A stretch of 64,000 nt of DNA from NCBI GenBank assembly GCA_964566535.1, contig CAZMIO010000002.1:62001-126000 (forward strand), in the 5' to 3' direction. The translations under genes were made by a program, and so were the position numbers. The notes below the pieces were generated by a model that worked only from the letters and a program-made list of their open reading frames with translations, searched no databases and was not told the DNA's origin. This document shows, piece after piece, positions 52,263 through 64,000 of this stretch. Numbering within the stretch: position 1 is the first letter of the stretch; the number at the start of each line of letters is the position of its first letter. This stretch comes from an uncultured Methanosarcinales archaeon. Its GTDB lineage: Archaea; Nanobdellota; Nanobdellia; Woesearchaeales; CAZOXR01.

Positions 52263-53408
52263 CTATAAGTAATAAAATGTTGGCTTTCCTTCTATCTTTT
52301 TAACTATACCTTCTCTAAATAAGTTATTCAAGTGAAATGATGCTGTTCTCATCTTGAGATCATTTAATTTAGCAACCTCTAAGGTAGTTAAGGATTTTTT
52401 TGAATTGATTAAAGTTTTCAAAACTATCTTTTTCGTTACATGCTTATCAACATAACTATCAATCATTTTTGTAAGTGTTTTTCTTTTCTTTACATGTGTA
52501 AAATTTATAAATCTTCTAAAATTTTCTAAATTTGATTTTCTATATATTCCAAGTCTTATTACAATCTTATCTTGATATCTTTGTTGTACATGTAGACTCC
52601 CAGTAGAGATATCAAATCCCGCTAACAACTCAACAATTTGATTAAAAAATTGTCTAATAGATTTTTCATAAATCTGATTCTTCCCCATAGCAATTATAAT
52701 TCTTTTAACATTTTTTCTACTATGATCAACACAGGATTCATCATCAAATATACCCCTCAAAAAGGAGGATTTAGTTTTTTTATCTGCTTTTAATATCCAA
52801 TTTGGAATTTTGGACTTCTGATCAAGTTTATATCCCTTAATACCTCCAATTAGATATAATATGTATCCAATTACTGGAGAAAGTTTTATTTCATAACATC
52901 TTCTATCTATTCTATGGTTTAATGTATACTCCCCTTGACCAATTGATGTACTTACAGCATTAACTACTTCTTTTACTAGATTTAACTGAGTATTAGTATA
53001 ATTAAATCTCCAATCAGATAAAATAGATCCATCACCAAATGATTTTGCCATAAGTAATGCCAATTCTGGTTTTACCTTAATGGGCAATTTTATTTGAACT
53101 GCTCTATTACTGCACCCTCTTTTAACAGATATGACATATTTCTCTATATGGCAAATCGGAATATCCAAAAATTCTAATAATCTCTTAAGAGCATCGGCAT
53201 TAATTGATTCTAATTTAGAGTATCTAAAGTTTCTTATTGTACCTGGAGAACATCCTATTTCTTTAGATAAAGATTTCAAGCTTTTTTTCTTTTTTAAAGC
53301 ATTTTCAATTAAAAATTCTTTATATTCTTTATTTAGACGAATATAAAAAGGCGGTACAAGTAAATCTTTTAATTCAACTAAATTTTCATTACTCAATTCT
53401 TGATTCAT
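52263..53408 (-). CDS. Free-standing two-motif LAGLIDADG endonuclease-like protein with N-terminal HTH and C-terminal winged HTH
   Basis: LALLMAKSFGDGSI and IPNWI...SFLRGIFDDESCV; SLKSLSKEIGCSPGTIRNFR; LTTLEVAK...ASFHLNNLFREGIV. Confidence 0.85.
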   Translation of the reverse strand: MNQELSNENLVELKDLLVPPFYIRLNKEYKEFLIENALKKKKSLKSLSKEIGCSPGTIRNFRYSKLESINADALKRLLEFLDIPICHIEKYVISVKRGCSNRAVQIKLPIKVKPELALLMAKSFGDGSILSDWRFNYTNTQLNLVKEVVNAVSTSIGQGEYTLNHRIDRRCYEIKLSPVIGYILYLIGGIKGYKLDQKSKIPNWILKADKKTKSSFLRGIFDDESCVDHSRKNVKRIIIAMGKNQIYEKSIRQFFNQIVELLAGFDISTGSLHVQQRYQDKIVIRLGIYRKSNLENFRRFINFTHVKKRKTLTKMIDSYVDKHVTKKIVLKTLINSKKSLTTLEVAKLNDLKMRTASFHLNNLFREGIVKKIEGKPTFYYL

Positions 53409-53539
53409 TTTAAATCACCAACCTTTTCCCCATTTGAGACTATCTAAATGATTTATATGCTTTCCGGGGGTCCGTGTCCAGTGGGTTGTGGTAGAAAATC
53501 ATAATTTAATAGCTCAAATATTACCTAGGTGATTTAAAA
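53408..53539 (-). ncRNA. LAGLIDADG-associated conserved leader element, copy 1 (putative structured RNA or mobile-element end)
   Basis: Perfect 12-bp terminal inverted repeat TTTTAAATCACC/GGTGATTTAAAA; core 53434-53512 is 70/79 identical to 63322-63400. Confidence 0.6.
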
Positions 53540-53547
53540 GTTAAGAA

Positions 53548-54789
53548 TCATAAAAATTGAGTTAATTTAGATTGTTGTTTCATATTTCTCAAAAGAATAC
53601 TGTTTTTTAATATAATCTCTAAATCAAAATTGAATTTTTTCTTTATAAAAATTTTAGCATATTTAAGCATAAGTTCCATACTTGAAAACCCTATAGACTT
53701 ATTATTCAATGCCTTTCTTGTAGCCTCAGTTGTCACCCAAACGCCTAAAGGCATTGCATATTCATCTGTTATTAATCTTATAGCTAAACAACTTCCTTGT
53801 CTTTTTACCCTATCTAAATGCTCTGCAATGGCCATCCTTACACTATACCAACCACCTGCACAATTTTGAGCATAAGTTTTTCTGCCTTCATAAGGTTCAA
53901 AATCAGTCATATATTTCAAATTAGACTCCATAGTTGTATTTGATGAAACATAAGTTTCAAACAATTCATAAGACCAAATTTCAGGGAAAAAAAGAAGCAA
54001 GTAATAATTACCAAGATAAGAGCCAAAATAAGCCTTATAATCAAATAAAGGAGAGTTCTTGATATTATTCAATAAATTTTTAGTTACTATATCATGAACA
54101 GCTGTCGTTGACCATCTTGTAGGAACCAATCTCCTATCCTTCTTCAGACCCAGATTTCCAATTGAAAACAATTTAGTAAGCGTATTCTCATCAACATCCT
54201 TCTTATACAATATTTTTATCCCTTCAGTTGTCTTCAAATCAGAATCAGAAACAACATAGTCAATCTTACGCGGAATCTTTGGATTCTCCGTTAACATTAT
54301 CTTCTTCAAATCAGTCGAAGGCCCCATCGGAAGACTATGATCATTTGTTTGCAGCCTAAATCTAGGTTTCTCCTTCAGATTAACCTCCAAAGCAGCTGGT
54401 TTAGAAGCCATTGCCAATTCCTGACCCAATAATATCAACTTCTCATTTTTCCGAGCATTTAATACATTAGAAGCATACTTATTATTCAACAAAGAGCTCC
54501 TAAAATTGACAATCTTAGGAATCTCATAATTATTCTGAGCCCAATACCTAGGCGCATCATAAAGCCATGAATCTTCCTTCAATTCAGGAGGGGCAAGTAC
54601 TCCAACATTAACATTAGGATAATTATAGTGCCCAACAAAGACAGAATTTGAATCTGAACTAAAATTCTCAGATTTAACAGTGTTCTTCAAGGTATATCTA
54701 GCAAAGTTCCTAGCACATATTGGACATTTTCCCTTACCACAATCACCTAATGGATCAAACCCCTCATGTTTCTTATAAGGCACCCTCAT
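53548..54789 (-). CDS. nreA: Nre family DNA repair protein
   Basis: SVFVGHYNYPNVNVG, RRLVPTRWSTTAV, YEGRKTYA, PLGVW; C-terminal PIP box QSKLTQFL. Confidence 0.9.
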   Translation of the reverse strand: MRVPYKKHEGFDPLGDCGKGKCPICARNFARYTLKNTVKSENFSSDSNSVFVGHYNYPNVNVGVLAPPELKEDSWLYDAPRYWAQNNYEIPKIVNFRSSLLNNKYASNVLNARKNEKLILLGQELAMASKPAALEVNLKEKPRFRLQTNDHSLPMGPSTDLKKIMLTENPKIPRKIDYVVSDSDLKTTEGIKILYKKDVDENTLTKLFSIGNLGLKKDRRLVPTRWSTTAVHDIVTKNLLNNIKNSPLFDYKAYFGSYLGNYYLLLFFPEIWSYELFETYVSSNTTMESNLKYMTDFEPYEGRKTYAQNCAGGWYSVRMAIAEHLDRVKRQGSCLAIRLITDEYAMPLGVWVTTEATRKALNNKSIGFSSMELMLKYAKIFIKKKFNFDLEIILKNSILLRNMKQQSKLTQFL

Positions 54790-54862
54790 CAGCAATATTA
54801 ATGGATATTAAATTAAAAACTTTTCCAAAAGGTTTTTATACATACTTTAATCTATAAACCAA

Positions 54863-63088: not shown

Positions 63089-63205
63089 TAGCGGAGAGTG
63101 GATTTGAACCACTGACCTTTACCCTTAGCATACGCCAATATGGGTGTCTAAGGCTCTAACAAACCGTATGAGCCCATCGGGCACTCCTGACTGCCCTACT
63201 CCGCT
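63089..63205 (-). tRNA. Initiator tRNA-Met (CAT) with two 21-nt introns (37/38 at 63146-63166; 43/44 at 63119-63139)
   Basis: A1:U72, GGG/CCC in the anticodon stem; removing both introns gives a 75-nt cloverleaf. Confidence 0.9.
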
Positions 63206-63296
63206 ATACCTTAAGAGAACTTTATTTCATTTATAAACCTTTTGTCACCCTTATTAAACTACTTAGTCAGCAATAACTTTATTTTAAATCTCACAG

Positions 63297-63423
63297 TTTA
63301 AATCATTTAGACATGCTTCAACTATTAAATTATGATTTCTTACTACAACCCACTGGACATGGACCCTCGGAAGATATATAAATCATTTAAATAGTCTCAA
63401 CAGAGAGGGAATGGTGATTTAAA
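63297..63423 (+). ncRNA. LAGLIDADG-associated conserved leader element, copy 2
   Basis: TTTAAATCATT...GGTGATTTAAA termini; core 63322-63400 matches copy 1; ends at the ATG. Confidence 0.6.
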
Positions 63424-64000
63424 ATGTTAGAAAAATTAAATTCAAAGATTGCAGAACTGATTGGTATGCATACTGGAGATGGAACATTGTACCGAACCAA
63501 TACTGGCACTGTTTGGGAATTAAGAGGGGCCCTTAATGAAAAAGACTACTATTATGACAACGTCATACCTCTTCTGAGTTCAATATTTAACAAAGAATTT
63601 AAACCAAAATTCAGAAGTGGAGGGAAAAATGGTTGTTTTGGGGTTCAAATATGTAAAAGAGAGGTTACTTCATTTTTTATCGATTATGGATTTAAACCCG
63701 GAAGAAAAACACATACTGTGAGGATTCCTGATTATATAAAAAAATCAAATAAACAAGTAAAATTAAATTTTATCAAAGGATTATTTGATACAGACGGATG
63801 TTTAAGATTTGACAAAAACGGGACAAATAGAAATTGTTATCCCAAAATAGAATTTGGATCTGCCTCTGAAAAGTTAATTGAAGACTTATCTTTATTATTA
63901 AAAGAACTTAAATTCAATAATTATACATGGAAAAGTAGAAATATCTCGAAACTATGTATCGCTGGGAAAATTATGCTTAAAAAATGGATAAAAGAAATAA
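63424..64000 (+). CDS. Free-standing two-motif LAGLIDADG endonuclease-like protein, runs off window end
   Basis: Not in ORF track; manual translation MLEKLNSKIAELIGMHTGDGTL...RIPDYI...NFIKGLFDTDGCL...YPKIEFGSASEKL. Confidence 0.88.
   Translation, partial: MLEKLNSKIAELIGMHTGDGTLYRTNTGTVWELRGALNEKDYYYDNVIPLLSSIFNKEFKPKFRSGGKNGCFGVQICKREVTSFFIDYGFKPGRKTHTVRIPDYIKKSNKQVKLNFIKGLFDTDGCLRFDKNGTNRNCYPKIEFGSASEKLIEDLSLLLKELKFNNYTWKSRNISKLCIAGKIMLKKWIKEI

Follow-up and report, generated by a model that had tools for sequence, protein, structure and literature searches.

A promoter box shared with DNA-repair genes and a family of hairpin leaders before free-standing LAGLIDADG genes in a woesearchaeal genome

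Two LAGLIDADG genes in the window, the whole 64,000-nucleotide stretch of archaeal DNA analysed here, are each preceded by a non-coding element that we take, on balance, to be a portable expression module of free-standing homing-type nuclease genes. The module would combine a promoter of the host's DNA-repair regulon with a hairpin that blocks translation, such that the nuclease would be co-expressed with RadA.

Two leader copies in the window

The two elements had been described in an earlier note made from the letters of the window, and that description was reproduced. The reverse complement of 53434-53512 aligns without gaps to 63322-63400 at 70 of 79 nt, all nine differences being transitions, and each copy is closed by GGTGATTTAAA directly before the ATG of an ORF matching Pfam LAGLIDADG_3. 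BLASTN of a wider stretch around both copies gave an E value of 7e-27. The encoded proteins are far less alike than the non-coding DNA (20% identity over 133 aa) and differ in architecture, as claimed: ORF1 is an HTH-LAGLIDADG-wHTH protein of 381 aa, and ORF2 has 226 aa at full genomic length. Terminal inverted repeats over the Shine-Dalgarno sequence were likewise found in both, as a 12-bp outer stem contained in the fold of copy 1 and as 9 bp plus two T.G positions, judged by eye, in copy 2. All four AAATCA half-sites were confirmed, and a search for an intron or intein context around copies 1 and 2 showed none. ORF1 has both LAGLIDADG motifs with acidic residues; its AlphaFold model has a pLDDT of 91.8, and its best Foldseek matches are intein- and intron-encoded LAGLIDADG nucleases. 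The source genome (1.45 Mb) contains seven hairpin copies. The features of the window are:

52263..53408, minus strand: ORF1, free-standing HTH-LAGLIDADG-wHTH endonuclease gene, 381 aa (Pfam)
53406..53546, minus strand: copy 1 hairpin leader, type A, promoter in the loop (cmsearch 73.6 bits; fold)
53406..53419, minus strand: copy 1 right outer arm, comprising Shine-Dalgarno GGTGA, spacer and ORF1 start codon
53434..53454, minus strand: copy 1 right inner arm
53451..53458, minus strand: copy 1 TATA box of the in-loop promoter (fixed spacing to the box)
53475..53484, minus strand: copy 1 putative repair-regulon box CCACTGGACA
53495..53514, minus strand: copy 1 left inner arm, with core helices and the 5' side of the invariant internal loop
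53528..53539, minus strand: copy 1 left outer arm, anti-Shine-Dalgarno (12-bp stem with 53408-53419; covariation)
53548..54795, minus strand: nre, NreA-like DNA-repair gene, a co-directional host gene (Pfam and neighbourhood)
63089..63205, minus strand: tRNA-Met(CAU) gene with intron, divergent from copy 2
63289..63426, plus strand: copy 2 hairpin leader, type A, promoter in the loop (cmsearch 74.3 bits)
63297..63307, plus strand: copy 2 left outer arm
63320..63339, plus strand: copy 2 left inner arm
63350..63359, plus strand: copy 2 putative repair-regulon box
63376..63383, plus strand: copy 2 TATA box
63380..63400, plus strand: copy 2 right inner arm
63413..63426, plus strand: copy 2 right outer arm, comprising Shine-Dalgarno and ORF2 start codon
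63424..64000, plus strand: ORF2, free-standing LAGLIDADG gene continuing beyond the window (Pfam; 226 aa in the genome)

The start site of copy 1 would lie near the end of the right inner arm. About 5 nt separate the end of nre from the left arm of copy 1, and the 3' end of ORF2 falls within the 5' end of an intron-containing tRNA gene. The tRNA genes at 63089-63205 and just past the window (G000:C2:126068-126186) apparently have two introns each, one of them non-canonically placed; the latter is tRNA-Ser(GCU) by eye and Cys according to ARAGORN. Just one endA-like gene was found in the window's genome.

A promoter box shared with DNA-repair genes

The GC-rich core of the element is a promoter, in which the box CACTGGACA stands at a fixed distance 5' of a TATA box (the parts running CCACTGGACA, short spacer, TATA box). 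A weight matrix scan of the window's genome identified 17 box promoters, all with one common spacer version. Ten precede LAGLIDADG-like ORFs, eight of these with a Pfam match; the other seven precede two Bro-N genes, the radA operon, xerA, genes for a Cas4-like nuclease and a YprB-like exonuclease, and a small ORF. The two window copies are alike because all box promoters carry the genome-specific version of the core and the arms are conserved in the family; much of the 88% copy identity therefore comes from the single spacer version.

The box 10-mer occurs 20 times, compared with once for a reversed control, and is present in 158 of 201 genomes of the order. This tally, like one of the hairpin pattern scans, includes the unpublished genomes G112, G121, G182 and G315, on none of which singly a claim depends; locus L342 was left out. 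Counted from the table, 119 of 154 genomes of the order have box plus TATA, as do 4 of 47 outside it; the window's genome scores 0 in this count because its spacer is 2 nt longer. When genes rather than motifs were taken as the starting point, box plus TATA preceded 28 of 29 radA operons and none of 24 origin-orc1 genes, with a background of about 0.01 per window of that test, and only 5 of 29 nre genes had the box. A motif-first scan covering 32 proteins gave UvrA, UvrB, Hef (three), Lhr, Hjc, MCM, ribonucleotide reductase, YprB (two), Bro-N (five) and Nre, with family names partly assigned by hand. These sequence contexts suggest that the box is a promoter element of an SOS-like host DNA-repair regulon extending across the order. 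The earlier proposal of an autoregulatory promoter cassette was thus borne out as to the promoter and not as to the autoregulatory operator, the promoter being one that radA, xerA and other genes also have. The note had further asked whether copies lie upstream of unrelated genes; the GC-rich core does, while the hairpin arms stay with nuclease- or toxin-type genes.

Bacterial LexA/SOS regulons, together with the elements that hijack SOS, have a similar set of targets, including recombinase, uvrA/B, resolvase, helicases, integrase, Bro-N/DinD-like genes and selfish genes. They differ in that the box here lies upstream of BRE/TATA, like an activator site. The DNA-damage regulon of Sulfolobales (Orc1-2, DDRE) is comparable in its fixed promoter element on repair genes, and a non-origin Orc1 paralogue is present here too. 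In Saccharolobus, the damage response is run by a non-initiator Orc1 through the DDRE ANTTTC (PMC9738581, passages cited). The motif is a different one, however, and the box was rejected as a Sulfolobales DDRE, CACTGGACA differing from ANTTTC; the box here moreover resembles an origin-box core. It shares CCACTGGA with an ORB-like site before cdc6 of the window's genome. ORBs have TTCC and GAA motifs as flanks (PMC1904270, passages cited); the box, without these flanks and dispersed rather than clustered at the origin, was also rejected as an origin recognition box. By analogy, the non-origin second Orc1 paralogue is a lead as candidate regulator: 35 of 41 genomes have two or more Orc1, and the box lies within about 3 kb of the second orc1 in 10 of 20 loci, directly upstream in one. 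In the window's genome a search for a WYL-domain gene found none, and there is one TFB gene.

Several further observations concern the box and its surroundings. The segment L345:900-1520 (G000 C4) is a likely replication origin, with an AT-rich tract and an origin-box-like site before cdc6. G103 has three-box clusters (L018, L033), two of the boxes forming an inverted pair, before mcm and other genes. In the loops of L141, L163 and L271 the TATA-proximal box is reversed and more like the origin box, which suggests an orientation-tolerant binder. The radA operon (L014:1240-1335; radA loci L379-L408) has its own conserved structured leader before a gene of ~100 aa without Pfam match; the leader consists of a variable stem, a conserved single strand of UGAAAUA type, a small hairpin and a short anti-Shine-Dalgarno stem. 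A conserved ORF of ~45 aa with a TIxxLFF-like motif lies 3' of the box promoter at L010, L022, L025, L029, L033, L050 and L057; it occurs in many genomes, often just 3' of the second orc1, and is possibly a peptide of the regulon.

Hairpin leaders, their cargo and insertion sites

The flanks of the core form the two arms of a hairpin, each made up of outer and inner segments with a spacer of 11-13 nt between them. We collected 108 distinct cores from the family, which occurs in 26 of 151 genomes of the order (a tally that probably also includes the unpublished genomes). What does not vary is an internal loop of 6x4 (YAAAUW opposite UUAN); the hairpin loop ranges from 5 to 145 nt. In type A, the outer stem pairs over the Shine-Dalgarno sequence and start codon, with the promoter within the loop; the loop holds a box promoter in 59 of 87 copies, both window copies included, and among the 28 copies without one the box lies 81-95 nt upstream in six. 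A covariance model, a check proposed in the note, added type B (29 of 71 classed hits), which has its core in common with type A, a GC-rich basal stem with a terminal U run, an upstream promoter, and a second covarying hairpin that covers the Shine-Dalgarno sequence. In 11 of 15 type-B loci measured the TATA box lies 21-32 nt before the hairpin base, so the hairpin would begin the transcript. Rfam, including any LAGLIDADG-associated motifs, gave no match, either for the window at the gathering threshold or for eight loci at E<=5, where tRNAs and chance hits were returned. Viral contigs had six and five pattern matches, none scored by the covariance model; no viral carrier was therefore seen. 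Related arrangements include a degenerate type-B hairpin before a LAGLIDADG gene at L013:1305-1420 (G000 C11), missed by both models, and box-driven nuclease-like genes at L006 and L009 (G000 C3 and C4) that have a short anti-Shine-Dalgarno stem only, without the core. The gene on C4 has a frameshift and is convergent with the one for the tRNA splicing endonuclease.

That the leader is structured is supported by covariation in the sequences. Of 92 candidates parsed from pattern scans, nine were dropped as false, truncated, disrupted or near-duplicate, and 83 entered the energy calculations; alignment A3 comprises 55 of the parsed copies, with the longest loops and doubtful ones omitted. Two-sided changes were found at 10 of 14 outer-stem pairs (55 copies), and the covariation score was matched in 0 of 500 shuffles. 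Across 83 copies, pairing with a copy's own arm was more stable than with the arms of other copies (-10.8 vs -8.7 kcal/mol, p 1e-4), and pairing of the ribosome-binding site was 0.80 with the left arm and 0.50 without it, being higher with the arm in 81 of 83. The spacers between outer and inner stems showed no complementarity (p 0.94), which argues against palindrome perfection by template switching. In the core, the top five of 1326 column pairs by covariation (108 distinct cores) are predicted base pairs, three of them at E<=0.05 in a custom tree-aware null, and RNAalifold recovered the core of type B unaided, with two-sided changes at 7 of 16 pairs. RNAalifold predicted no structure from type-A alignments A3 and A4, copy 2 folded no better than its shuffles (z 0.12), and tree-aware tests gave one significant outer or middle pair among 55 type-A copies and, among 80 copies, one significant cross-arm pair with none in the outer stem. 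Alignments A6 and A7 are biased toward structure because the A6 filter counts G-U as paired and A7 is model-fitted.

The ORFs behind the leader are diverse. LAGLIDADG_3 matches 47 of 66; others are Vsr-like, Mrr-like, HNH-repeat, RelE/ParE-like and, in one case, nucleotidyltransferase-like, and several have no Pfam match. The 66 proteins fall into 45 clusters at 40% identity, and both LAGLIDADG motifs were present in 69 of 99 cargos by a loose pattern. In the nearest relative, a leader lies at the same site after nre before an ORF without similarity to ORF1. Among relatives' loci a leader follows nre in 1 of 30, with unrelated cargo, a pattern of patchy presence and replacement at the locus; with regard to possible co-conversion of flanks, the nre 3' end is more alike between the two carriers (83% in one 100-nt bin), and a codon test gave a modest result. 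On the cargo tree, leader types are distributed at random, with 16 changes against 16.3 when shuffled (quick tree, 77 rows). These sequence comparisons support independent exchange of the ORFs relative to the leader, and the swapping of nuclease ORFs envisaged in the note stands to that extent. A Bro-N gene of the window's genome has the left inner arm and core but a different 3' half, a trace of recombination at the promoter. One leader sub-family (L136, L216, L217, L245, L469) precedes toxin-antitoxin-type ORFs, with two copies on some contigs; there the same first ~14 codons are fused to different genes.

Of 99 cargos, 28 end next to a tRNA gene, an arrangement seen in 0 of 210 control windows. 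Introns were called in every one of these 28 tRNAs; at that threshold the genome baseline is 38 of 48, so this is a hint only. Only 4 of 92 loci have a duplicated 5' or 3' part of a tRNA upstream of the leader; at L465, L085, L520 and L540 pieces of the adjacent tRNA gene recur there, a possible left insertion boundary. The note had suggested a look for empty-site and inverted alleles; in contigs from four DNA runs neither copy showed an empty site, an inversion or an excision joint, and low cover over ORF1 in one of these runs was left out of account.

Expression of the nuclease and alternative readings

In the module as we favour it, RNA that enters from host genes upstream, nre in the case of copy 1, would carry both arms and fold, leaving the nuclease untranslated. 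Transcripts from the box promoter inside the loop would lack the left arm and be translated. If only these are translated, nuclease synthesis would be confined to times at which the repair regulon with RadA is active. A double-strand break that the nuclease makes in an allele without the cassette could then be repaired with the cassette copied in, and ORFs would be exchanged behind the module by recombination. Where the promoter lies upstream of the hairpin, the induced transcript itself would carry the lock, so that a further opening step would have to exist; in such copies the leader is probably opened or processed through protein binding at the invariant internal loop. The upstream gene is divergent in 16 of 38 in-loop copies in which it could be classified, and read-through is therefore not expected there. 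The outer stems of copies with divergent neighbours were not significantly weaker (-10.2 vs -12.6, p 0.12).

The nearest known systems are the hairpins of T-even phage homing endonuclease genes (I-TevI, I-TevII, I-TevIII, segB, Aeh1 mobE), for which the cited passages of PMC2988022 describe the logic of a promoter within a hairpin and a dependence on the recombinase of the host. There too the hairpin covers the Shine-Dalgarno sequence and start codon, the promoter's own transcript is without the 5' arm, and the nuclease gene lies among host genes. Promoter placement of the T4 type is found here in 59 of 87 type-A copies and is absent from type B and upstream-promoter type A. The present family differs in its archaeal chromosomal setting, its LAGLIDADG cargo, the sharing of one structural family by unrelated ORFs, the conserved internal loop, the type-B architecture, and a repair-regulon rather than a phage late promoter. 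It also resembles free-standing homing endonuclease genes and the systems of intronless and collaborative homing (seg, mob; segB in a tRNA region), which are without intron or intein, lie beside conserved genes and tRNAs, and place different nucleases at one locus. The seg and mob nucleases are GIY-YIG or HNH rather than LAGLIDADG, and homing by the genes described here is putative.

Could the opposite strand be the one on which the core hairpin acts, either as a single-stranded DNA fold (attC-like or HUH-type) or as antisense RNA, with masking of the Shine-Dalgarno sequence secondary? We regard this as unlikely, though a serious alternative. Core mismatches on the mRNA strand are AC in 42 cases and GU in 20 (binomial p 0.007 ignoring kinship; the copies are not independent), the duplex of the antisense strand has the greater stability in 63 of 83 copies, and what is a 2x2 UC/UC loop on the mRNA strand becomes a tandem GA on the opposite one. 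In ten type-B copies the core has GU 2/AC 8, compared with 13/5, the usual GU excess, in the Shine-Dalgarno hairpin (Fisher p 0.016). This strand polarity is the main difficulty for the favoured module and, together with the divergent-neighbour copies, means that the core may work through the opposite strand, be it DNA or antisense RNA; the unconstrained loop length, the randomness of leader type on the cargo tree, and the use of the same box by xerA point the same way. However, no right-end motif is conserved at 71 non-tRNA loci, the invariant unpaired bases are adenines on the mRNA strand, an antisense TATA peak is absent at the expected distance, and excision or inversion joints are absent from the contigs of the four runs. 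The helix bases beside the internal loop also vary freely here, unlike those of recombinase arms.

Integron attC sites are similar in their imperfect hairpin, free loop length, unpaired spacer, opposite-strand bias and exchangeable ORFs. They differ in having arrays of flanked cassettes and a GTTRRRY core, both absent here, and a shorter spacer; no integron integrase scored over the cut-off in the window's genome, only XerA. An attC, IS200-IS605 or transposon end was rejected, there being no matching site at the ORF's other end and, as a rule, one model hit per locus. In a related and doubtful proposal, DNA damage controls an undescribed archaeal system that recognises the invariant internal loop and so gates a pool of nuclease and toxin ORFs and reshuffles it. 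The loop would belong either to a protein-sensing RNA switch with interchangeable expression platforms or to an attC-like hairpin of single-stranded DNA read by the co-regulated XerA, in which case the cassettes would form an integron-like nuclease exchange coupled to the SOS-like response.

Release of the hairpin as a separate RNA of ~95 nt, a partner of the nuclease through maturase-like binding or as a guide or inhibitor, is very unlikely. Type B would suit such an RNA: its hairpin follows a promoter, begins at the inferred start site and ends in a U run, with the ORF 55-110 nt further on. Some LAGLIDADG proteins bind RNA. In comparison with OMEGA-like systems a scaffold-like core is present, but no variable guide segment was seen. 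The 45 cargo clusters among 66 proteins include non-LAGLIDADG folds, a cargo too diverse for one protein-RNA pair; leader type does not track cargo phylogeny, and 59 of 87 type-A copies have their hairpin broken up by the promoter. The structured leader anticipated in the note is thus upheld by covariation, and its partner or guide RNA is not.

We consider it highly improbable that the arms are double-stranded DNA operators around the promoter, used for autorepression by HTH domains or by a host repressor. The right inner arm does lie between TATA box and inferred start site, the inner arms are highly conserved in type A, and I-TevI autorepression offers a precedent (PMC2988022, passages cited). 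Yet the arms change together and complementarily, which independent binding sites would not do, many cargos have no HTH, and the distance from arm to TATA box is variable. There is scarcely more to be said for an inner stem that serves as a bulge-helix-loop substrate of the tRNA splicing endonuclease, which would cut the leader. One can draw a register that has a helix of 4 bp and a bulge of 3 nt, the window's genome has, by eye, non-canonical tRNA intron positions, and HBh' sites exist (PMC4090602, passages cited). Covariation of columns 20-35 and 21-34, however, pairs supposed bulge with supposed helix bases, leaving the 6x4 loop; it contradicts that register, and a BHB/BHL intron was rejected.

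An invertible promoter, a transposon end or a simple recent duplication, for which inverted repeats around the promoter and the 88% identity of the copies might speak, is hardly tenable: 0 of 62 long loops are reversed (52 forward by pattern, and 9 of the 10 unmatched forward by eye), contrary to the note's invertible promoter; the right end is not conserved, against its mobile-element end, and the covarying ends are inverted rather than direct and so are no target duplication; and the ORFs, 20% identical as proteins, are unrelated at the DNA level, with the same core in the radA, xerA and Bro-N promoters of the genome, which speaks against the duplication that the note had named as a refutation.

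In the literature searched, the box, the leader family and the nuclease pool were not found described for DPANN archaea. The main text of PMC5737381, as far as consulted here, has no LAGLIDADG passage; its supplement, which may describe LAGLIDADG-associated RNA motifs, lies outside this negative. An order-wide promoter box on repair genes offers a handle on damage-response regulation in archaea outside Sulfolobales, and it is linked here to a conserved structured leader family, absent from Rfam, and through it to a large and diverse pool of free-standing LAGLIDADG genes, whose neighbours, tRNAs and conserved genes, point to likely targets. If the expression module works as we propose, selfish nucleases would time their expression to the recombination state of the host, DNA exchange between cells of these symbionts would be implied, and the nucleases may help explain their many tRNA introns.
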